Positions 11,990 to 22,150 are shown, numbered from the stretch's first letter. The stretch is DNA of 64,000 nt from Lysobacter sp. (GCA_008015835.1 SSGH01000008.1:69165-133164), one strand, 5' to 3'. A program made the numbers and translations. Notes: generated by a model not told the origin, from the sequence alone.

Positions 11990-12183
11990 CGTGCGCTCTC
12001 CTGTATGCGTCGCGGGCATCATCGCGCCCACGGCGCAGGCGGTCAACGGCGCAAGCGGTCATTAACAAAAGCGCCCAAAAGCGCTGGTTTGCCGGATTTG
12101 GCGCGAACGAGGCGAACCAGCGACCGGCGAGCGCCGATCGCGTTCGTTTGCCGTCCGCATCGACAACGATCGCGCGGTCTGCG

Positions 12184-13641
12184 CTACCCGTTGGGCAGGG
12201 TGCGATCCGCGTGACGTTTCGCGATATTTCCGCGCCGCTCGCGGGCGACGACGATGCGATCGACGACGACGAACGCCAACAAGGCGGCGCCCGCCAGCGG
12301 AAACAGCGCAGCCAGCGCGATCATCGCCACGATCATCGAGCGCGGCAGCGCGTGATCGCGCGCGTCGGGAACGCCCATCCGCCCGCTCGGCCGGCGTCGC
12401 CACCACATCACGATGCCCGCGAACACGGCGACGAGCAGCCCGACGCAGATCGCGAGCGCGAGCAAGCGATTCGGTTCGCCGAATTGCCGGCCCATGTGCG
12501 CCATCACGCCCCATTCCACCGCGCGTCCCAGCGGGCTGTAATCGCGCCAGCCGATGTCCTGCAGCACGCGGCCGGAATACGGATCGACATACAGCGTGCG
12601 TTGATCCTGCGCGCGGTCCGGTATCAGACTGAGCGTGTACACATCGCGTTCGCCTTCGGGATAGAACACGCGCAGACGCGGCCCGATGCGGGTGAGGCCG
12701 CGCCGTTCCGCGATCCGCATGACGTCCTGCAGCGCGATGCGAGCGGCGCCCGTTCGCGTCGCTTGCGGCGGCGCGCGGCCCGATTCGCGCACCGCCCAGG
12801 GCAATGCGGCGGTGTCGTCGCGGTCGCGATGTTGTGCATGCGGGTCGACGCCCGCGGCTGTCTCGACGGTGCCGAGCGAATCGAGCGTCGGCGCTGCGCT
12901 GAAGTTCGGCGTCGGTCGCGTCGCTTCGCTCAGGGTGCCGAGTTTCGCGAGTTGTTCGCCCCAGAATCCCGACCACGGCAGCCCCGACAGCACCAGAAAC
13001 ACGATCCCGACGGCCAGCAGCGCCGAGGGGATCGCGTGCAGATCGCGCCAGAACGCGCGGCCCGTCGCGCCCAGACGCGGCACCAGCACGCCGCGCACCC
13101 GCCAACGCGCGGGCCACCACAGCCACAGCCCGGTCAGCGTCATGATCAGCGCGCCGCTGGCGGTGAGCTCCACGAACCAGTCGCCGGGCCGGCCGAGCAG
13201 CAGCTCGCCGTGCAGATCGGAGATCACGTGCATCAATCGGCGATGTTCGGGAATCGAACCGGTCACGCGCGCTGTCCACGGATCGACCAAGACCGCGCGC
13301 CGCGCGCCGCGTGGATCGACCACGGCCCAGGCGGCGACATGCGTACGATCGTGCGGCAATACCACCGACGCCAGTCGCGCGCCCGGAAACGCGCGCCGCA
13401 CCGCCGATTCTTGATCGGCGATGGGCGCGCGTCGTTCGCCGGGTTCCACGTTCATCAATTCGCCGTACCAAGCGCGCTCGATCTCGCTGTCGTAGAGATA
13501 GAGCGCGCCGGTGATCGCCAGCACCGACAGCACCGGCGCGATCAACAGGCCCATGTAGAAATGCCAACGCCAGATCGCGCGATACGATTTCTTGCGCGGG
13601 CCGGTGTCGATCGCGTCGGCGGTGTCGGCGGCGTCGTTCAT
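12184..13641 (-). CDS. PepSY-associated TM helix domain protein
   Basis: YRAIWRWHFYMGL, DLHGELLLG, RDLHAIPS, WGVMAHMG; directly downstream of a TonB receptor. Confidence 0.9.
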   Translation of the reverse strand: MNDAADTADAIDTGPRKKSYRAIWRWHFYMGLLIAPVLSVLAITGALYLYDSEIERAWYGELMNVEPGERRAPIADQESAVRRAFPGARLASVVLPHDRTHVAAWAVVDPRGARRAVLVDPWTARVTGSIPEHRRLMHVISDLHGELLLGRPGDWFVELTASGALIMTLTGLWLWWPARWRVRGVLVPRLGATGRAFWRDLHAIPSALLAVGIVFLVLSGLPWSGFWGEQLAKLGTLSEATRPTPNFSAAPTLDSLGTVETAAGVDPHAQHRDRDDTAALPWAVRESGRAPPQATRTGAARIALQDVMRIAERRGLTRIGPRLRVFYPEGERDVYTLSLIPDRAQDQRTLYVDPYSGRVLQDIGWRDYSPLGRAVEWGVMAHMGRQFGEPNRLLALAICVGLLVAVFAGIVMWWRRRPSGRMGVPDARDHALPRSMIVAMIALAALFPLAGAALLAFVVVDRIVVARERRGNIAKRHADRTLPNG

Positions 13642-13645
13642 GGCC

Positions 13646-15757
13646 TCAGAACGCCCAGTTCAGACGCAGACTGACATGGCGCGGATCGCCCGGCAGCACG
13701 TTGAACACATTGCCCGACGCGGCGTAGTAGCGTTTGTCGAGCGCGTTGTTCACGGTGAGATCGGCGGACCACGCGTCGCGGGCGTAATGCACGCCGAGAT
13801 CGACCAGACCGTAACCGGGCAGGCGCACATCGCTGCCGTTCACCAAGCGCCGCTCCGATACGCCGTAGACGCCGCCTTGCAACGACCAGGGCGTGCCGGC
13901 GAAGGCGTAACGCGCGCGGACGAGGCCGGTGAGTTTGGGGGTGTCGCCGAGCTCGGCGTCCTGGTCGCCGTCGTAACTGCGCGTGACCTTGCCGTCGAGT
14001 CTCGCCAGACCCCAGTTCAAGGCGAGGTTCTCGCCCAGCCGCGAATCGCCTTCCAGCTCGATGCCGCGCACGCGCTGTTCGCCGTCCTGCACGCTGAAAT
14101 CCGGATTGGTCGGGTCGGTGGTCAGCGCATCGATGCGGCGCAGATCGAAGACCGCGGCGCTGAGGCGATGCCGCTCGGTGTTCCAACGCAGGCCGGCTTC
14201 GACTTGTCGCGAACGTTCCGGGTCGAACGGTTGGCCGTTCGCGCCGCGGGCGCCGAGCGTACTTTCGGTATCGAAGCCTGTGTTCACGCCGCCGAACAGC
14301 GACCAGCGGTCGGAGAGGCGAACGTTCGTCGCCAACTGCCACGTGGTCGCCGAGACTTCGGAGCTGTCGCGCACGCCGTCGTTAGTTTGCGTGTAGTCGA
14401 AGCGGCTATGACGCACGCCCACGATCGCGTCCCACGTCGGCGTCAGCGCGATCAAGTCCTGCGCGTAGAGCGCGGTGCCGTCCCCGAGGCCGGCGAAGTC
14501 GAAACCGAATACGGTGGTCGGCGCGACCGCAGGATAAGTGTAGGTCGGACGATAGATATCGACCGCGCCGACGTTGGTCAGGTTGTACTGCAGGAAGGTG
14601 CTGTCTTCGCGGCTGGCTTCCACGCCCAGCAACACTTGATGCCCGACCGAACCGGTGTCGAAGCGGCCCGACAGGTCCAATTGCGCGATCTGGTAATCGT
14701 CGTCTTCCGTGCCGAAGCGGCCGTTGCGGTTCACGGTGGTGCCGTTGGCCTGCATCGCGCGCAGACGGATCTGGCTGAAGTCGGTGCGGAAACCCTGATA
14801 TTGATAACGCGGCGTCAGCGTCCACGCATCGGACAGCCGAATATCCGCCCACAGTTGGATGAGCGGCGAATCGGCGGTGAGCGGACGGATCGACGGCTCG
14901 CCGAGGAAGACATCGCGCGAGACGCGGCCCTGGCCGTTGTTCGCCACCGTGCCGATCACCGGCAGGCCGGAATAGCCCAGGGTTTCGCGTTCGATGTACT
15001 CCGACAACCAATGCACCGTGACCGCATCCGACACAGTCCAACGCGCGGCCAGCGCGATGTTGTTGCGGTCGATGTCCTGACGATCGACGAAGGTGCCCGA
15101 ACGTTCGATTTCGCCGGTCAGACGCGCGGCGAAACGGCCGTCGCCACCGAGGCCGCCGGTCAGGTCGAAGCCGGCGACGCGTTCGTCGTCCTCGCCGACG
15201 CGCACCCAGGCGCTGCCGCCGAAAGCGTCTTCGGGGCGTTTGGTGATGATGCTGACGATGCCGCCGATCGCCGACTGCCCGTACAGCACCGACGACGGGC
15301 CTTTCAGCACTTCCACGCGATCGACGTTCGACATCGCCGAGGCATCGATGTCTTCGTAATAGCGCTGACGAATGCCGTTGCGCATTTGATCGGCGAGAAA
15401 ACCGCGCACTTTCAAGCTGAAACTCTGATAGCGCGACACGCGCGATTGCCCGGCGTTCGCGCTGGGCACGTTGCGCAGCAGGTCGCCGACGCTGCGTGCG
15501 CCTTGCGCTTGAATCTGTTCGCCGGAGATCACCTGCACGCTTTGCGGCATGCGCGACAGCGGGATGCCGGATTTCTCGCCGAAGGCATCGTCGGTCTTGG
15601 TGCCGGTCACGACGATGGTGTCGAGGGTGTCGGCGGACGCGTCGTTCGTGTCGTCGGCGGTGGGCGTCGCCGACATCGCCGGAAAAGATAAGCCGCAGGC
15701 GATGGCCAAGGCGAGACCGGCGCGGCGTGGGAGGAGGTTGCGTCGAGTGAGGTTCAT
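13646..15757 (-). CDS. TonB-dependent receptor
   Basis: Signal peptide, TonB-box-like DTIVVTG, plug RVEVLKGPSSVLYGQ..GGIVSIITK, C-terminal NNALDKRYY...LRLNWAF. Confidence 0.93.
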   Translation of the reverse strand: MNLTRRNLLPRRAGLALAIACGLSFPAMSATPTADDTNDASADTLDTIVVTGTKTDDAFGEKSGIPLSRMPQSVQVISGEQIQAQGARSVGDLLRNVPSANAGQSRVSRYQSFSLKVRGFLADQMRNGIRQRYYEDIDASAMSNVDRVEVLKGPSSVLYGQSAIGGIVSIITKRPEDAFGGSAWVRVGEDDERVAGFDLTGGLGGDGRFAARLTGEIERSGTFVDRQDIDRNNIALAARWTVSDAVTVHWLSEYIERETLGYSGLPVIGTVANNGQGRVSRDVFLGEPSIRPLTADSPLIQLWADIRLSDAWTLTPRYQYQGFRTDFSQIRLRAMQANGTTVNRNGRFGTEDDDYQIAQLDLSGRFDTGSVGHQVLLGVEASREDSTFLQYNLTNVGAVDIYRPTYTYPAVAPTTVFGFDFAGLGDGTALYAQDLIALTPTWDAIVGVRHSRFDYTQTNDGVRDSSEVSATTWQLATNVRLSDRWSLFGGVNTGFDTESTLGARGANGQPFDPERSRQVEAGLRWNTERHRLSAAVFDLRRIDALTTDPTNPDFSVQDGEQRVRGIELEGDSRLGENLALNWGLARLDGKVTRSYDGDQDAELGDTPKLTGLVRARYAFAGTPWSLQGGVYGVSERRLVNGSDVRLPGYGLVDLGVHYARDAWSADLTVNNALDKRYYAASGNVFNVLPGDPRHVSLRLNWAF

Positions 15758-16032
15758 AAGTGGCTGCGTTCCTGTGGATGAATGAAGGTGTCCGACGCGC
15801 GCGCTGGACGCGCGTCGCGCGGAAAGTCGCGATGCGTGAGCGTGGGGCGAGACGAAGGACCGCAATGTCCCGGCGCCGGCCGAATTCGACCGACGGAACG
15901 ATGCGTTGAGTTGGGTGGGCGGGCGGTTCGCGACCGATGGGGGGCGCAAATGCCCCCATCGATCGCGAAGCGTGGACGCTGCCGATGTTCGACACCCGCG
16001 GTGCGATGTCGAAGCGACGGCGGCGAGACGCG

Positions 16033-16548
16033 TTATCGGCTGCCCATCTCGCGGACTTCGAGTTTCACCTCGCGCGTGCCGGCGCGTTCGAAGCGCAACG
16101 TCGCGGTAACGGTTTCGCCGCGCACGAAGGGATGCTTCGGGCCGATGAACATCAGGTGATAGCCGCCGGGTTTGAGCTGCGTGCTTGTCTTTGCCGGAAT
16201 TTCCAGTCCGTCGTCGAGTTTGCGCATGCGCATCACGCCGTCGGTCATGCTCATCTCGTGGATTTCCACGCGCTCGGCATCCGGGCTGGTCGCCGACAGC
16301 AGACGATCGGCGCGCGCGTCGTCGTTGCGCACGGTGAGGAACCCGCCGGCCACCGGCGCTTTCGGCGGCGTGGCGCGCGTCCATGCGTTTTCGATGGCGA
16401 GCATGGCCTTGGCTTTCGCCTTGGGGCCGGCGGCGAACGTCGCGGTGGACAACGCCAGCGAAGCGGCGGTCACAGCGACGATCACAGCGGCGATGCCGAA
16501 GCGGGCACGGAGGGCGACGCGTGGGGAAGGGGAATGCATGGCGTTCAT
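16033..16548 (-). CDS. Copper chaperone PCu(A)C
   Basis: AWTRATPP, ERVEIHEM...GVMRM, LKPGGYHLM (H-x-M...H-x-M Cu site). Confidence 0.92.
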   Translation of the reverse strand: MNAMHSPSPRVALRARFGIAAVIVAVTAASLALSTATFAAGPKAKAKAMLAIENAWTRATPPKAPVAGGFLTVRNDDARADRLLSATSPDAERVEIHEMSMTDGVMRMRKLDDGLEIPAKTSTQLKPGGYHLMFIGPKHPFVRGETVTATLRFERAGTREVKLEVREMGSR

Positions 16549-16679
16549 AGTTCGATCTCGATGTCGTCTAACAGGGTGTGGGAATGGACGCGGCGGCCGT
16601 CGCGTTCGGCCAGCGCCGACAGCAGAAACACGGCCCAGCCGATCAGCCAGAACAGCGCGAAGAAAAAGAAGGCTTCCAT
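16545..16679 (-). CDS. Unannotated 44-aa single-TM peptide (MEAFFFFALFWLIGWAVFLLSALAERDGRRVHSHTLLDDIEIEL)
   Basis: Below the ORF-track cutoff. RBS-like AAGGGAGAG upstream; begins 3 nt after the DJ-1 stop; its TGA overlaps the PCuAC ATG. Confidence 0.7.
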   Translation of the reverse strand: MEAFFFFALFWLIGWAVFLLSALAERDGRRVHSHTLLDDIEIEL

Positions 16680-16682
16680 CGC

Positions 16683-17522
16683 TCACTCTCCCTTCGTCGG
16701 CTGCGTATCGCGCGCGATCCGTCGTGCGCGTGCGATGAACCCGGGGAACATGCCGCCGATCATGTCGACGACGGCCTGCGGCGCGGTGGCGGGCGTTCCC
16801 GCATCGAACGGCGGCTTCGGCGCGTACTCGGCGAGCAATTGCACGCCTTCGGCGTAACTGCGGTCGCGCAGTTCGGCGACCATCGTCAAACCGAGATCGA
16901 GCCCTGCGGAGACGCCCGCGCCGGTCACGCGATTGCGATCCCGCACGACGCGTTCGTCGACCGGGATCGCGCCGAAGTCGCGAAGCACGTCGCGCGCGAC
17001 CCAATGCCCGGTGGCGCGATAGCCGGTGAGCAGACCCGCGCGCGCCAGCAGCAACGAACCGGTGCACACCGAAGTCACCCATTTGGCGCGCGCGCCGCGA
17101 TCGGCGACGAACGCGACCAGCGCCGGGTCTTCCATCGCGTCGAGCACGCCGCCGCCGCTGCCGGGCACGAACAGCACGTCGAGCTGCGAGGGGCATTCGT
17201 CCAGCGTCGCCGTCGGTACGATCGACAGCCCGGTGTCGCTGGTGACCGGTGCGTGCGTCTTCGCCACCAGATGCACGGTCGCGCCCATCAGATTCGCGAA
17301 GAAATACTGAGGCCCGACCAGATCCAGCGCGGTGAACCCAGGGTAGAGCAGCATCGCGATCTTGTCGGTGCCCATCCACGAGGCCGGCATCGCGCTCATA
17401 TCGTGGTCGGGCGGCGCTTCGCGCGTCGCCGGAGTTTCGGCGGCGCTCGTCGCCGCCGCGCCGGCCAAGAGCGAAGCGGCCGAAGAGGTCGCGGCGATCA
17501 AAAAACGTCTGCGGTTGGACAT
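16683..17522 (-). CDS. Tat-signal DJ-1/PfpI family protein, isonitrile (isocyanide) hydratase-like
   Basis: MSNRRRFL Tat motif; LDLVGP (Asp), VTSVCTGS (Cys-Thr), EYAPKPPFDAGTP as in InhA/ICH; DHDMSAM linker. Confidence 0.85.
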   Translation of the reverse strand: MSNRRRFLIAATSSAASLLAGAAATSAAETPATREAPPDHDMSAMPASWMGTDKIAMLLYPGFTALDLVGPQYFFANLMGATVHLVAKTHAPVTSDTGLSIVPTATLDECPSQLDVLFVPGSGGGVLDAMEDPALVAFVADRGARAKWVTSVCTGSLLLARAGLLTGYRATGHWVARDVLRDFGAIPVDERVVRDRNRVTGAGVSAGLDLGLTMVAELRDRSYAEGVQLLAEYAPKPPFDAGTPATAPQAVVDMIGGMFPGFIARARRIARDTQPTKGE

Positions 17523-17531
17523 GACGACTCC

Positions 17532-17931
17532 TCAGTAATCCACGCGAAACGTCAGCAGCGCGTTGCGCGACGCGCCGGGCTGATTCCAGTCCGTCACGTG
17601 CTGATGGCTGCCGGTGAAGTACGCGCGATCGAACACGTTGTTGATGTTGAACTGCACCTGCGCTTTCGCATCGCCCAGCGGGAATCGATACGCCGCCATC
17701 GCATCGTTCTGCGGCGTACGACGGACGCAGGCCGATCACTTCGACCGTGTCGAGAGACTCCGGCGAGGTTTCGGGGGAAGCCTGCGAAGGCGAGGGGGCC
17801 TCCGCTGCGGATGCTGAGGGGGAGGTTTGAGCGAGGGCGGACAGCGCGGGAATCAGCGCGGGAATCAGCGCGGCCGTCACGGCCACGGACAACAGCGATG
17901 CGCGCGGCATCGCCTTCGGTGCGAATGGCAT
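17532..17931 (-). pseudogene. Internally deleted TonB-dependent receptor (N-terminus fused out of frame to C-terminus)
   Basis: Signal peptide plus SLDTVEVIGLRPSYAAE, then in another frame DAMAAYRF...QVQFNINNVFDRAYF...RNALLTFRVDY-stop (17532-17534). Plug and barrel are missing. Confidence 0.85.
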
Positions 17932-18000
17932 GAAGGAGGGCTCCGGAAAGACGCGGAACCGCGCCGGAAATCCGGGCGCGGTCGTGGAGTGAGTCGTGCG

Positions 18001-18429
18001 TCAGACCGTGAGCGGCGGGCCGCGAGAACCGAGGCCGAGCGGGTAATGCCAAATGGGCGCAGGAACGCCGCGAGCGGGCGATGCGACCGCGACGACGGGC
18101 GCGAGAGCGATCGCCGACGTCGGAACGGGAACGAGGGAAGCGGCGGCGATCGCGCAGTAATCGCAGTCGTCGCCGGTGTGCGGCGGCAGCGGCGTTTCGC
18201 TGTCGGTCCGCAGCGAGAAGCCGGCCGCTTCGACCGCTGCCGCCGTCGCGTCGTACGCCAGTCCTTTCGCGGTGCACATCGCGCCCAGCGCGGCCGCGAT
18301 CTCGCGATTACCGTCTTTGGGCGCCGTCTCCTGCGCGAGGCGCCCGATGCTCGGAAGCAGCGTGAGCGCCAGCATCGCCGCGAGGGCGAGCCGGCTCATG
18401 CAGCGCTGGAAGGCGTGATACCGAGACAT
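18001..18429 (-). CDS. DUF2946 / CruR-like copper-responsive leader protein
   Basis: N-terminal hydrophobic segment, CDYC (CxxC), C-terminal GSRGPP; heads a TBDR/PCuAC/PepSY operon. Confidence 0.85.
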   Translation of the reverse strand: MSRYHAFQRCMSRLALAAMLALTLLPSIGRLAQETAPKDGNREIAAALGAMCTAKGLAYDATAAAVEAAGFSLRTDSETPLPPHTGDDCDYCAIAAASLVPVPTSAIALAPVVAVASPARGVPAPIWHYPLGLGSRGPPLTV

Positions 18430-18442: not shown

Positions 18443-18571
18443 CCGGCTTAGGTCGGCCGCGCCGCGAGCCGGTCGCGCGGGCGCTCGCGTCGAACGTTCG
18501 CCGACTGGGGGACGAAAAGGCCGCGACGACGACGAAGCGCATGCCTTCGTCGCCGCCGCGACACCACCCAT

Positions 18572-19183
18572 TCACTTCTTGCAGGGAATCGTGTTGCCGT
18601 TCGGGTCGTAGCAGGTCGCGGTGCGGGTCAAGCCATCGTCCTTGTTGCCGCTGACCGAGGCTTCGTAGCTGTTGCCGCTGCGGCCGGTGGCGTCGACGCT
18701 GCGATCGAGTTGGCCGTTCGCGTACTGCGTGTCGGCGTTGTAGCTCCCGCCTTGCGCGCCGGCGACGTTGGTCGTGCGTCCGCCGCTGACGGTGCCGTCG
18801 GCGCTGCGGACGAATTCGCCGTTGGTGCTGCCGCTGCTGTTGGCACCGTTCCATTGCGCGCCGCTGTGATGCTGCAGGCTGCCGTCGGCGTTGCGCGCGG
18901 TGCTGCCGGCGCGCGCGCCGGTACCGCCGTTCGGGCCGCGATAGGCGCCGCCGCTGACGACTTTGCCGTTGCCTTGGCCGTCGGTGGTCGCAGCGCGGCC
19001 GCGGATCGCGCCGCCGCCGTTGGGGCCGCGCACCGCCGACGCGCGACCGGCGCCGACGCCGCCCTCGGGGTTGGCGTGTGCGCCGCGGGCTTTGACGCGG
19101 CCGGCGGCGTCGGCCGGCGGCGCGGCGAGCGAAAGCGCGAGGCCGAGGGCCAGCGCGGGCAGGGCGAGAAGCGTGGTGTTCAT
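18572..19183 (-). CDS. Secreted Gly/Ser/Asn-rich repetitive protein, hypothetical
   Basis: Signal peptide; repeats of RGPNGG, NADG/SADG; C-terminal TCYDPNGNTIPC. Confidence 0.8.
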   Translation of the reverse strand: MNTTLLALPALALGLALSLAAPPADAAGRVKARGAHANPEGGVGAGRASAVRGPNGGGAIRGRAATTDGQGNGKVVSGGAYRGPNGGTGARAGSTARNADGSLQHHSGAQWNGANSSGSTNGEFVRSADGTVSGGRTTNVAGAQGGSYNADTQYANGQLDRSVDATGRSGNSYEASVSGNKDDGLTRTATCYDPNGNTIPCKK

Positions 19184-19289: not shown

Positions 19290-19838
19290 TCAACCGCGGG
19301 CTTCCCACATGCCGATCAGGCGTTCGCGCAGTTGCGCGAAACGATCCAGCCGTTCGGCCATCGCCGCGCGGACTTTCGCCTGCTCGGCGGGCGTCAGCGA
19401 TTCGTAGAGGTCGAGCTGGCGGTCGCGCAGCGCGCGCGCTTCGGCCATGTGCGCATCGACGCGGCGCTGGGATTCGTTCGAGAACGCGCGCAGATCGGGC
19501 GAGGATTGATCCAGCAGCGTGCGGAATTCCTGCATGCCGTCGCGCAAGTCTTCGCGGCCGACGCGGCGCAGCGCAATGGCTTCCTGGCGCAGCGCATCCC
19601 ACTGCTTGGCGTGCGCGCCGGCGATGCCGATCTGCGCGGCGGTGGGCGGCGCGAAGCGTTCGGCGTCGGCGAAGCGCGGCGCGGCGACGGCGGTGGCGAC
19701 GGTGAGCGCCGCGGCGACGGCGGCGACCAGATACAGCGATTTCGGCGAGAAGGCGCGGCGGGATTGCGCGCCGCTCCGAACGGTGCGGGCTTGAACGGTG
19801 CGGGTCTGGACGGTGTGGGGCGAGCGGGAGCCGGTCAT
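19290..19838 (-). CDS. Spy/CpxP-like periplasmic helical protein
   Basis: Signal/TM segment; SLTPAEQAKV (LTxxQ-like); all-helical; divergent from the TCS. Confidence 0.6.
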   Translation of the reverse strand: MTGSRSPHTVQTRTVQARTVRSGAQSRRAFSPKSLYLVAAVAAALTVATAVAAPRFADAERFAPPTAAQIGIAGAHAKQWDALRQEAIALRRVGREDLRDGMQEFRTLLDQSSPDLRAFSNESQRRVDAHMAEARALRDRQLDLYESLTPAEQAKVRAAMAERLDRFAQLRERLIGMWEARG

Positions 19839-20054
19839 GGCGAGGTCCTTTGCGTTGGGGGCGGGCGTCGGGCGACGCCGTGGACGCAGAATGCGGAAAG
19901 CCCGAGCGCGAAGGGTGTCGGAGCCGCGTCGGCGTGCAAGCGAAGATGTCGCGATGGCGCGGCGGACACATTCGTTTACAACTCGGCCCGCGCCGCGGGC
20001 GCGCGCGCGGCGATCGCCGCTTGTCGCGGACGCCGCGGCGGCGACAATGGCGGC

Positions 20055-20807
20055 ATGAACGTTTCTACCGCCATCCCCGCCGCCGCGTCCGCCCCCTGCG
20101 TCCTGGTCGTCGACGACGACGAGCGCCTGCGCGCGCTGTTGCTGCGCTACTTGGAACAACAGGGCATGCAGCCGCTGGGCGCGGCCGATGCGCGCGAACT
20201 CGATCGACAACTCGCGCGGCATCACGTCGATCTGATCGTGCTGGACCTGATGCTGCCCGGCGAAGACGGCCTCTCGATTTGCCGTCGCCTGCGCGGCCAA
20301 GGCGTGGAGACGCCGATCGTGATGTTGACCGCGAAAGGCGACGAGGTGGATCGCATCGTCGGCTTGGAGATCGGCGCCGACGATTACTTGCCAAAACCCG
20401 GCAATCCGCGCGAATTGGTCGCGCGGATTCGCGCGGTGCTGCGCCGCGGGCGACCCGCGCCCGGCGCGCCGAAGGAAGACGGTGGGCGCATCGCGTTCGG
20501 CGCCTGCGTGCTGGATCTCGGCGCGCGCACGCTGCATCGCGACGGTCGCGAATTGCGCATGACCACCGGCGAATTCGCGGTGCTGGCGGCGCTGGTGCAG
20601 CGGCCGCGGCAAGCGTTGACGCGCGATCAGTTGATGAGCGCTGCGCGCGGGCGCGAACACGATGCGTTCGAGCGCAGCATGGACGTGATGGTCAGCCGGC
20701 TGCGCAAATTGGTCGAACAGGACCCGAAACATCCGCGCTGGCTGCAAACCGTGTGGGGCACCGGCTACGTGTTCGTGCCCGACGACGCGGCGGAGCCCCG
20801 CGCATGA
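20055..20807 (+). CDS. ompR: OmpR-family response regulator
   Basis: VLVVDDD, LIVLDLMLPGEDG, MLTAKG, GADDYLPKP, winged helix LQTVWGTGY. Confidence 0.85.
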   Translation: MNVSTAIPAAASAPCVLVVDDDERLRALLLRYLEQQGMQPLGAADARELDRQLARHHVDLIVLDLMLPGEDGLSICRRLRGQGVETPIVMLTAKGDEVDRIVGLEIGADDYLPKPGNPRELVARIRAVLRRGRPAPGAPKEDGGRIAFGACVLDLGARTLHRDGRELRMTTGEFAVLAALVQRPRQALTRDQLMSAARGREHDAFERSMDVMVSRLRKLVEQDPKHPRWLQTVWGTGYVFVPDDAAEPRA

Positions 20808-22150
20808 GCGGCGCGTCGCGCGCGGCGTCGAAGCGCGCGCGCATCTTCGCGGCGCTGTCCGATGCGTTCGGACGGCTGCACACGCGATTGCTGCTGCTGT
20901 TGGCGGCGGTGGTGATCGCATCGGTCGCCGCCACGGCGTTCGCGTTCGGTTTGACCACGCGCGAAAGCAGCGCGGAACGCGCGGCGCGCATGCTGCATGC
21001 GCAGGTGATCGCCGCCGACGCGCTGTTGGCCGAGTCGGACCGCGTCGCGGCCGAGGCGCAGTTGCGTCGGCTCGGCCTGCGGTGGCGCGACCGTTTGCCG
21101 GAGGAGACGCGCGCCGAGATGCCCTGGCTGCGCAAAATCGAAACCCGCGCCGCTGCGCGTCTGCCCGGCCGCGCGATGCGGCTGAGCGGTTCGCCGCCGC
21201 GGCTGTGGGTGCGCGACCGCAGCGGCGACGGCTGGATCGGCGTTCCGCTGCTGGCCGGCGCCGAACCGTTCAAACGCGGCTTGGCGCTGTCGTTGCTCGC
21301 CATCGTGACGCTGGTGCTGGCGGCGGCGGCGATCTTCGCGCGTACCCTGACCCGTCCGCTGCGACGGCTGGCCGACGTCGCCCCCGCCATCGTCGCCGGC
21401 GAGGCGCCGCCGCCGCTGCGGTTCGCCAGCGCGGAAATGCGCGAACTGCAGGATTCCTTGGCCCAGGCCGCGGACGCGACCCGCGCCGTCGCCCGCGACC
21501 GCGAATTGATGCTGGCCGGGCTGTCGCACGACATGCGCACGCCGCTGGCGCGGCTGCGCTACGGCTTGGCGCTGATGGAAGGCGACGGCGATGCCGAGGG
21601 CCGCGAAGCGATGGAGCGCGATATCGACGAGATCGACGCGATCGTCGGCCAGTTCATCGATTACGTCCGCGACGGTCGCGACGAGGCCGAGACCGAGGTC
21701 GATTTGGCCGAACTTCTGCGCGAACAGGAGGATGCGGAGGCCCGCGCGGGCCGCGACTGGGCGCTCGTCGCGCCCGAATGCGCCGCGCTGCACGGGCGGC
21801 CGCTGGCGCTGCGCCGCGCCATCGGCAATCTGGTCGCGAATGCGGTCAAACACGGCGCCGCGCCGTTCGAACTGCAGCTCGAGGCCTGTCCGCCCGACCC
21901 CGAATCCGGTCTGGCCGAAGGCTGGCGACTGCGCGTGAGCGACCGCGGCCCCGGTGTGCCGCAGGAGCGGCTGAACGACCTCGGCCGCCCGTTTCACCGC
22001 GTGGACACCGCGCGCGGCACCCCCGGCAGCGGTCTGGGACTGGCTAGCGTCGCCCGCGTGGCCGCCGTCCACCGCGGCGCGCTGCGCCTGCGTAACCGCG
22101 AGGGCGGCGGATTGGAAGCCGAGCTGCGGCTGGCGTTCCGGCCGGACTGA
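20804..22150 (+). CDS. EnvZ-like sensor histidine kinase
   Basis: Two TM segments, HAMP, H-box LSHDMRTPL, N-box NLVANAVKHG, DRGPG, GSGLGLA; ATGA overlap with the regulator. Confidence 0.9.
   Translation: MSGASRAASKRARIFAALSDAFGRLHTRLLLLLAAVVIASVAATAFAFGLTTRESSAERAARMLHAQVIAADALLAESDRVAAEAQLRRLGLRWRDRLPEETRAEMPWLRKIETRAAARLPGRAMRLSGSPPRLWVRDRSGDGWIGVPLLAGAEPFKRGLALSLLAIVTLVLAAAAIFARTLTRPLRRLADVAPAIVAGEAPPPLRFASAEMRELQDSLAQAADATRAVARDRELMLAGLSHDMRTPLARLRYGLALMEGDGDAEGREAMERDIDEIDAIVGQFIDYVRDGRDEAETEVDLAELLREQEDAEARAGRDWALVAPECAALHGRPLALRRAIGNLVANAVKHGAAPFELQLEACPPDPESGLAEGWRLRVSDRGPGVPQERLNDLGRPFHRVDTARGTPGSGLGLASVARVAAVHRGALRLRNREGGGLEAELRLAFRPD

Follow-up and report, generated by a model that had tools for sequence, protein, structure and literature searches.

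A CruR-type leader, a disrupted TonB receptor and an exported isocyanide-hydratase-family enzyme in a predicted copper-starvation locus of Lysobacter sp.

In a stretch of 64,000 nucleotides (nt) from Lysobacter sp. (GCA_008015835.1 SSGH01000008.1:69165-133164; here the window, with positions counted from its first letter), open reading frame (ORF) listing, the sequence itself and Pfam and NCBIfam profiles place seven co-directional units on the minus strand between 12184 and 18429, exactly where an earlier note made from the sequence alone had put them. We read these units, with a probability of roughly 0.6, as a copper-starvation system that would import chelated copper, process the ligand with an enzyme of the isocyanide hydratase (ICH) family and pass Cu(I) to the chaperone PCuAC. 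Comparison with relatives shows that the ancestral cargo consisted of a TonB-dependent receptor (TBDR1), a twin-arginine translocation (Tat)-exported ICH-family enzyme, a membrane peptide of 44 amino acids (aa) and PCuAC. What appears to be new here, going by sequence, is a CruR-led copper operon with receptors other than CrtA, in which an exported enzyme of the ICH clade is the receptor's conserved partner.

The features are, in the direction of transcription and followed by hairpins and boundaries:
18001..18429, minus strand: DUF2946 leader, 142 aa (PF11162)
17532..17931, minus strand: TBDR1 remnant, its C-terminal part matching TIGR01783
16683..17522, minus strand: Tat-exported protein of the isocyanide hydratase family (DJ-1/PfpI), 279 aa (PF01965)
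16545..16679, minus strand: 44-aa ORF (ORF listing, conservation)
16033..16548, minus strand: PCuAC, 171 aa (PF04314)
15758..16032, minus strand: PCuAC-TBDR2 spacer, 275 nt, structured
13646..15757, minus strand: TBDR2, intact, 703 aa (plug and barrel)
12184..13641, minus strand: PepSY_TM inner-membrane protein, 485 aa (PF03929)
17960..17980, minus strand: hairpin in the leader-to-receptor spacer, conserved in six loci
18520..18562, minus strand: terminator-like hairpin of 18 pairs, then CTTTTCG, which closes the upstream 203-aa gene and forms the 5' boundary of the locus
12070..12085, minus strand: terminator-like hairpin and T-run 3' of PepSY_TM, the 3' boundary of the locus

The CruR-type leader and the layout of the locus

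The leader is the first gene of the operon: a terminator-like site lies upstream of it, and TBDR1 is directly next in five congeners, as is the TBDR1 remnant here. It scores 32.5 bits with PF11162 (gathering cut-off 23.7), covers profile positions 2-117 and begins with a signal-like N-terminus, behind which come C52, C89DYC92, a 43-residue spacer and R136GPP139, then LTV and the stop codon. In Bordetella pertussis CruR the counterparts are C51, C90xxC93 and, 45 residues further on, RAPP at 139-142, with three residues left up to the stop (PMC9426467), and the spacing from CxxC to R(A/G)PP agrees between the two proteins within 1-2 residues. RGPP is, like RAPP, the most arrest-prone variant according to PMC12992588; arrest proper has been demonstrated in vitro for the RAPP motif of CruR. 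After the CxxC codons comes a pyrimidine-rich 30-mer (18152-18123) similar to the unstructured, C/T-rich region known from B. pertussis cruR, and the 69 nt from leader to receptor hold a C-rich, G-poor stretch, the hairpin at 17980-17960, a T-rich tract and GGAG. Six related loci share this hairpin, and one of its pairs shows a compensatory change (U-A to C-G), which is weak evidence since six loci are a small sample. In every feature by which CruR can be recognised from sequence, the leader is a true DUF2946/CruR-type protein with a predicted CruR-like function, and the earlier note was right to call it so from CDYC and RGPP.

Behind the leader the genes are closely packed. Nine nucleotides with GGAG inside separate the TBDR1 remnant from the DJ-1 (ICH-family) gene, 3 nt separate that gene from the peptide ORF, the latter overlaps PCuAC by ATGA, and 4 nt lie between TBDR2 and PepSY_TM; the tight junctions noted previously are thus confirmed, in an account that had not stressed the 275 nt between PCuAC and TBDR2. 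All locus genes are kept in synteny in five congeners, which together with the conservation of the 44-aa ORF (see below) argues that they are not chance ORFs.

A second DUF2946 leader is present elsewhere in the genome (G000 contig C13:143297-146107) and reads CGYC ... RGPP with a 6-residue tail. The gene 3' of it encodes a TonB receptor of 796 aa; in its plug region this protein is similar to the TonB-copper model TIGR01778, with a score below the cut-off (113.7 bits), and no PepSY_TM gene comes after the pair. This second DUF2946(RGPP)-receptor pair may cover copper uptake.

The exported enzyme, its receptor and the copper chaperone

The DJ-1 protein (PF01965, E 1.6e-28) starts with MSNRRRFLIA and so displays a twin-arginine (SNRRRFL) leader, the RRxF of which is nearly invariant in 24 close homologs. 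Its closest solved relative is PDB 3EWN (P. syringae ThiJ/PfpI, from structural genomics; E 1.5e-83, 56% identity in the fold alignment), and the match with P. fluorescens ICH reaches about E 1e-58. Asp67, Cys153 and Thr154 align to Asp17, Cys101 and Thr102 of the latter, residues whose roles we take from the titles of mutant PDB entries, and are invariant in the 24 homologs; near the C-terminus (EYAPKPPFDAGTP) the enzyme has the EYAPxPPFxAG segment in common with ICH. An AlphaFold model (mean predicted local distance difference test score, pLDDT, 85.6) superimposes on ICH in Foldseek with a template modelling score of 0.92, a root-mean-square deviation of 1.5 A and 47% identity, and other DJ-1 proteins come far behind (about 22% identity). 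About 4900 homologs of the enzyme were found, many auto-annotated as cyclohexyl-isocyanide hydratase.

While fold, Asp/Cys/Thr set and EYAPxPPFxAG are thus those of ICH/InhA from P. fluorescens and P. putida (DJ-1 superfamily), the window enzyme differs from these cytoplasmic proteins in its twin-arginine signal and in an extra conserved His/Met segment at the mature N-terminus, H40-D-M-S-x-M-P-x-x-W (here HDMSAMPxxW). H40, M42, P46 and W49 are invariant in the 24 close homologs, the segment is moderately ordered in the model (pLDDT about 81), and it is missing from cytoplasmic ICH, whose alignments begin at query residue 54. The N-terminal extension is covered by 3EWN, which has PDMGPDM in place of HDMSAMP, and from H40 to W49 the segment varies in more distant exported members. 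Taken together, sequence and model identify the protein as a predicted Tat-exported member of the isocyanide hydratase family, for which isonitrile hydration is predicted only.

Its gene, unlike those for ICH, adjoins genes for a TonB receptor and a copper chaperone, and this turns out to be a property of its clade. We compared 83 loci with ICH homologs: 79 distinct ones, each species being represented by a single genome, and 4 added for distant homologs from the database. The neighbourhood sample consisted of the 80 best among some 600 or more matches. In a maximum-likelihood tree the family falls into two clades separated with 100/100 support, one cytoplasmic (37 rows, all lacking a signal) and one exported (47 rows), and the window enzyme groups in the latter, apart from the characterised cytoplasmic enzymes. 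An adjacent co-directional TonB receptor gene was found in 22 of the 42 signal-bearing loci, as opposed to 0 of 41 cytoplasmic ones (Fisher 1e-8); a CruR-like leader, detected with a profile built from CruR-like ORFs, lies upstream on the same strand in 9/22 receptor-linked loci (cytoplasmic, 0/41), and PCuAC is present in 8/42 exported loci (again 0/41). The four database homologs (58-70% identity; Sphaerotilus, Variovorax and two metagenome genomes) all display a TonB-dependent transporter (TBDT) gene and then the ICH-like gene, at distances from a 4-nt overlap to 130 nt, and all four pairs are preceded by a DUF2946-type leader, which is on record in Pfam for two and rests on the CxxC/R(A/G)PP pattern plus the profile for the other two. 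Gene order in a Burkholderiales locus (L023) is DUF2946-TBDR-PepSY_TM-PCuAC-ICH, a verrucomicrobial locus reads ICH-PCuAC-SCO1-cytochrome c, an armatimonadotal one DUF4198 ... ICH-HMA protein, and carriers of the exported clade include Methylococcaceae and Methylosinus. The receptors next to exported ICH genes are diverse, with only two clear TBDR1 orthologs among them; within the genus, 5 of 40 relatives have a TBDR1 ortholog, and an ICH ortholog is found in precisely those five. Conservation of the DJ-1 gene in homologous DUF2946 operons, on which the earlier note had staked its reading, is therefore what the neighbourhood search found, both within the genus and in distant Proteobacteria. 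That note had correctly seen a Tat-type DJ-1 protein; it is, however, no casual add-on but specifically of the isocyanide hydratase family and the conserved partner of a receptor that this strain has deleted.

In two of the distant loci, from Variovorax (L019 5372-5820) and Burkholderiaceae (L020 5362-5726), two small ORFs without Pfam match separate the DUF2946 leader from the receptor gene (85 + 64 aa and 38 + 83 aa, respectively). At L020 8922-12899 a convergent operon on the opposite strand (DUF2946-like, SCO1, PCuAC, PepSY_TM, methionine sulfoxide reductase) adjoins the DUF2946-TBDT-ICH unit, making up a copper island with two leaders.

The deletion itself can be mapped to the nucleotide. 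Between leader and DJ-1 gene, an intact TBDR1 gene (722 aa) is found in 5/5 congeners (G002, G004, G009, G013, G017), and the nearest relative (91% DJ-1 identity, on >20 contigs) likewise has an intact one of 731 aa, so the locus originally had two receptors, as had been proposed. Measured against the intact gene of the nearest relative, two pieces are left, nt 1-209 at 17931-17711 and nt 2022-2196 at 17706-17532. AGAA (17710-17707) stands in place of the 1812 nt of TBDR1 between them, so that the frame is shifted and the part with signal peptide and TonB box no longer reads in frame with the final 55 residues (TIGR01783 profile positions 598-648). The TBDR remnant of the earlier note is hence a real internal deletion of 1.8 kb with a reproduced junction. 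An assembly artefact was considered and rejected: two Logan contigs of other runs (L106, L107) span the junction without gaps at 99.94% and 100% identity, and a third agrees with the window up to just short of it. Since independent assemblies carry the same junction, we regard the deletion as real and strain-level. Elsewhere the genome holds neither a TBDR1 ortholog nor a further ICH-like gene. Selection on the enzyme was not seen to relax after receptor loss, the enzyme's ratio of non-synonymous to synonymous rates (dN/dS) against the nearest relative being 0.15 and so like that of its neighbours (peptide 0, PCuAC 0.23, TBDR2 0.11, PepSY_TM 0.19). By this measure the genes for enzyme, peptide and PCuAC are intact and under purifying selection despite the loss of the receptor, and because the retained genes are without sign of decay, the deletion is probably recent. 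The strain may thus be seen as a natural dissection of the system, with the receptor lost and the enzyme kept.

The deletion also sets the TBDR1 start codon in frame with an open frame of 632 codons (16033-17931, minus strand), which crosses the enzyme gene out of frame and then joins the PCuAC frame. Translation from the old TBDR1 start would cross the starts of enzyme and peptide and stop at the PCuAC stop codon.

The 44-aa ORF is, judged by its conservation, a real and lineage-restricted gene. It forms 22 database clusters, every one exactly 44 aa long, and its product consists of one N-terminal hydrophobic helix (single-pass membrane) and a tail, TLLDDIE, that does not vary; L013-L016 differ from one another by more synonymous (16-23) than non-synonymous (3-4) changes. 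The peptide is absent from the distant ICH loci examined. The protein encoded next, whose start overlaps the peptide stop codon, matches PF04314 (E 3.7e-40, 136.6 bits), has a hydrophobic N-terminus as judged by eye and carries the motif H97-x10-M-x22-H-x-M, one residue longer than the PCuAC consensus H(M)x10Mx21HxM. Domain, motif and export signal all identify it as a predicted periplasmic Cu(I) chaperone of the PCuAC type.

Downstream, TBDR2 and PepSY_TM form a separable module, since both are missing from the locus in G002. The PepSY_TM protein (PF03929, E 1.8e-60, 205.7 bits) has His27, His144, His202 and His382 in hydrophobic contexts, as possible haem ligands, and would belong to a family of haem-dependent periplasmic metal-chelate reductases, the known members of which are ferrisiderophore reductases (PMC13038864). 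With its 4-nt gap, the TBDR2-PepSY_TM pair is reminiscent of FoxA-FoxB ferrisiderophore uptake (TBDT plus PepSY_TM reductase); unlike FoxA-FoxB it sits behind copper genes, and the PepSY_TM protein is without a sequence match among PDB structures, solved FoxB included. The spacer in front of the pair is strongly structured (z -3.8 compared with shuffled sequences), about 65-160 nt longer than in relatives and contains a long GC hairpin of about 19 pairs, GATCGATGGGGGC...GCCCCCCATCGGTC, that lacks a U-tract; the spacer could represent a repeat element that has been inserted. In three relatives the same gap holds a hairpin with a T-run a few bases on. The spacer may therefore mark a boundary between two transcription units, with TBDR2 and PepSY_TM as a separate one, and given this hairpin/T-run in relatives and the 275-nt structured gap here, gating by the leader may reach no further than the fifth unit.

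Proposed copper route and competing explanations

How the parts of a copper-starvation system may work together can be sketched from what is known of their relatives. At low cytoplasmic copper, and by homology with B. pertussis CruR, the ribosome would stall on RGPP, three codons before the leader stop, and the stalled ribosome would cover the C-rich spacer so that transcription runs on into the cargo genes; copper on the nascent CDYC would relieve the stall, and transcription would then stop at the spacer hairpin or at a Rho utilisation (rut) region. TBDR1 would bring in copper on an organic carrier, which the Cys153 nucleophile of the exported enzyme would modify in the periplasm, in the simplest case by isonitrile hydration as its relatives do, so that the copper is freed. 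PCuAC would accept the Cu(I) and deliver it to Sco and haem-copper oxidases, and TBDR2 with PepSY_TM would act as a second module, separable from the first, which takes up a metal chelate and frees its metal by reduction. The 1812-nt deletion has deprived the first of these routes of its receptor in this strain.

The organisation closest to that of the locus is cruR-crtA-crpH of B. pertussis (Roy 2022, PMC9426467; Hachmi 2026, PMC12914433, PMC13038864), where the DUF2946 leader also comes first and a TonB-dependent transporter second, and with which the locus has in common CxxC, R(A/G)PP three residues from the stop and a TBDT-PepSY_TM pair. It differs in having RGPP instead of RAPP, in the spacer and receptor type discussed below, in the additional exported ICH-family enzyme and 44-aa peptide and in its original two receptors, the first now deleted. 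Partners listed in the cruR/crtA papers are TBDT, PepSY_TM, PCuAC, Sco, YcnI, CopC, MbnPH and AhpC (PMC9426467, PMC12914433), with PCuAC reported in a few cruR/crtA-type operons; the DJ-1/ICH enzyme and the peptide go unmentioned there, in agreement with the claim that both are additions to the characterised operon. The terms DJ-1, PfpI and isocyanide do not occur in the supplements of the CrtA paper either, and full-text literature searches returned no paper linking ICH-like enzymes to TonB or copper uptake.

The locus bears on the question of what copper-regulated TonB transporters naturally bind, for which the 2026 CrtA study reported no high-affinity chalkophore and put forward xenometallophores. 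Here, a conserved pairing specific to the clade joins a receptor of the metallophore type to an exported enzyme, the closest characterised relatives of which hydrate isonitriles, known copper-binding natural products, and this offers a concrete, testable ligand class as well as a release mechanism. In a more far-reaching version, TonB receptor and exported ICH-like enzyme would make up a widespread and undescribed "xenochalkophore" piracy module, by which the Cu(I)-isonitriles of other microbes are imported, hydrated to formamides and relieved of their Cu(I) in favour of PCuAC/Sco; this we put forward tentatively, at well short of even odds. If true, formamide formation would abolish the ligand's affinity for copper, the Cu(I) would go to haem-copper oxidases, and the module would be the copper counterpart of siderophore esterases and put a name to the ligand class of copper-regulated TonB transporters. 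For the well-studied ICH family, the pairing also suggests that its physiological function may go beyond defence, and the module is found in methanotrophs as well as in further bacteria whose copper demand is high. Isonitrile synthases of the PvcA/IsnA type (PF05141) were found neither in this genome nor in 4/5 carriers, in a search that left out the ScoE-type route and whose sensitivity was uncalibrated by a positive control; because this genome has none, a foreign ligand is likelier than a self-made one.

Among 41 genomes (this one and 40 relatives), the sole PvcA/IsnA-type match lies in G002 (contig C11:26447-26848, L102). It scores 74 bits over the N-terminal half of the profile, and the genome also has an intact TBDR1-ICH locus.

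Several observations weigh against a copper-starvation system as sketched above. The leader-to-receptor spacer of 69 nt is short in comparison with the 162 nt of B. pertussis, and that copper controls the locus, that the ribosome arrests and that the genes are co-transcribed are predictions. Neither receptor is, by sequence, of the CrtA type and both are of the siderophore type: they pass the TIGR01783 siderophore-receptor cut-off and resemble the iron-siderophore receptors FhuA, FoxA and FetA at E 1e-50 to 1e-58 (TBDR2 with FoxA, E 2e-49), and since the CrtA structure 9RVQ yields partial matches with no full-length stretch (TBDR2, E 1.2e-21; TBDR1 of G013, E 2.3e-23), they are not members of the CrtA family, to which the receptor of the characterised operon belongs. 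Between PCuAC and TBDR2, the terminator scan flagged no canonical terminator in the relatives. For the exported ICH clade enzymatic activity is a prediction, 3EWN being a structure without assigned function, and an adjacent receptor is lacking in 20 of the 42 exported homologs. Finally, the enzyme's partner receptor is gone from this genome and without a paralog, so the first route may not work in this strain.

Of the competing explanations, periplasmic antibiotic defence survives best, albeit as an unlikely one to our minds. On this view the sole task of the exported ICH-like enzyme is to detoxify isonitrile antibiotics (xanthocillin-like) that enter via TonB receptors, and no copper is delivered. 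The active-site residues conserved in the window enzyme fit this, any substrate would be foreign in a genome without a PvcA/IsnA-type synthase, and characterised ICHs are thought to be defensive in the very papers from which isonitriles are known as possible chalkophores (PMC10792529, PMC10462001). Defence alone, however, leaves unexplained why the receptor-linked loci include nine with a copper-sensing leader, why PCuAC, Sco and HMA neighbours recur across phyla and why the enzyme is so strictly paired with one receptor gene. Besides, the enzyme could serve both detoxification and the release of copper.

Somewhat harder to defend, and in our view quite unlikely, is a non-enzymatic role, in which the DJ-1-fold protein would bind or transfer periplasmic Cu(I) via Cys153 and H40-D-M42-S-A-M45-P and so bridge receptor and PCuAC. 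Cu(I) binding has been reported for human DJ-1, with the reactive cysteine as the site, and a His/Met segment that is invariant at four positions among close homologs, absent from cytoplasmic ICH and moderately ordered would suit such a task. That segment is not kept, though, in receptor-linked loci further off, such as those of Methylococcaceae, Phreatobacter and Bordetella, and the full ICH catalytic set with EYAPxPPFxAG is retained, which argues for retained catalysis. An iron system, in which two siderophore-type receptors and PepSY_TM would take up and reduce ferric siderophores next to incidental copper genes, draws on the receptor matches above and on the ferrisiderophore reductases among PepSY_TM enzymes, but we consider it very unlikely as the leader has the copper-type architecture (CxxC plus R(A/G)PP), PCuAC is translationally coupled within the unit and Sco and PCuAC recur beside the exported enzyme in unrelated phyla.

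Genes upstream of the locus

Just upstream, at 18572-19183 (minus strand), lies a gene for a 203-aa Gly/Asn-rich secreted protein without Pfam or NCBIfam match. It ends in the strong 18-pair terminator listed above and is present in L015 and L017; it was not found in L013, L014 and L016. Further upstream, 19290-22150 (also L103 594-3442) includes the gene for a 172-aa exported protein with a LTPAEQ-type motif and, divergent from it, an OmpR-type response regulator and a histidine kinase, an arrangement kept in the nearest relative. This set of 172-aa protein, regulator and kinase looks like an envelope-stress module of the CpxP/CpxRA type.

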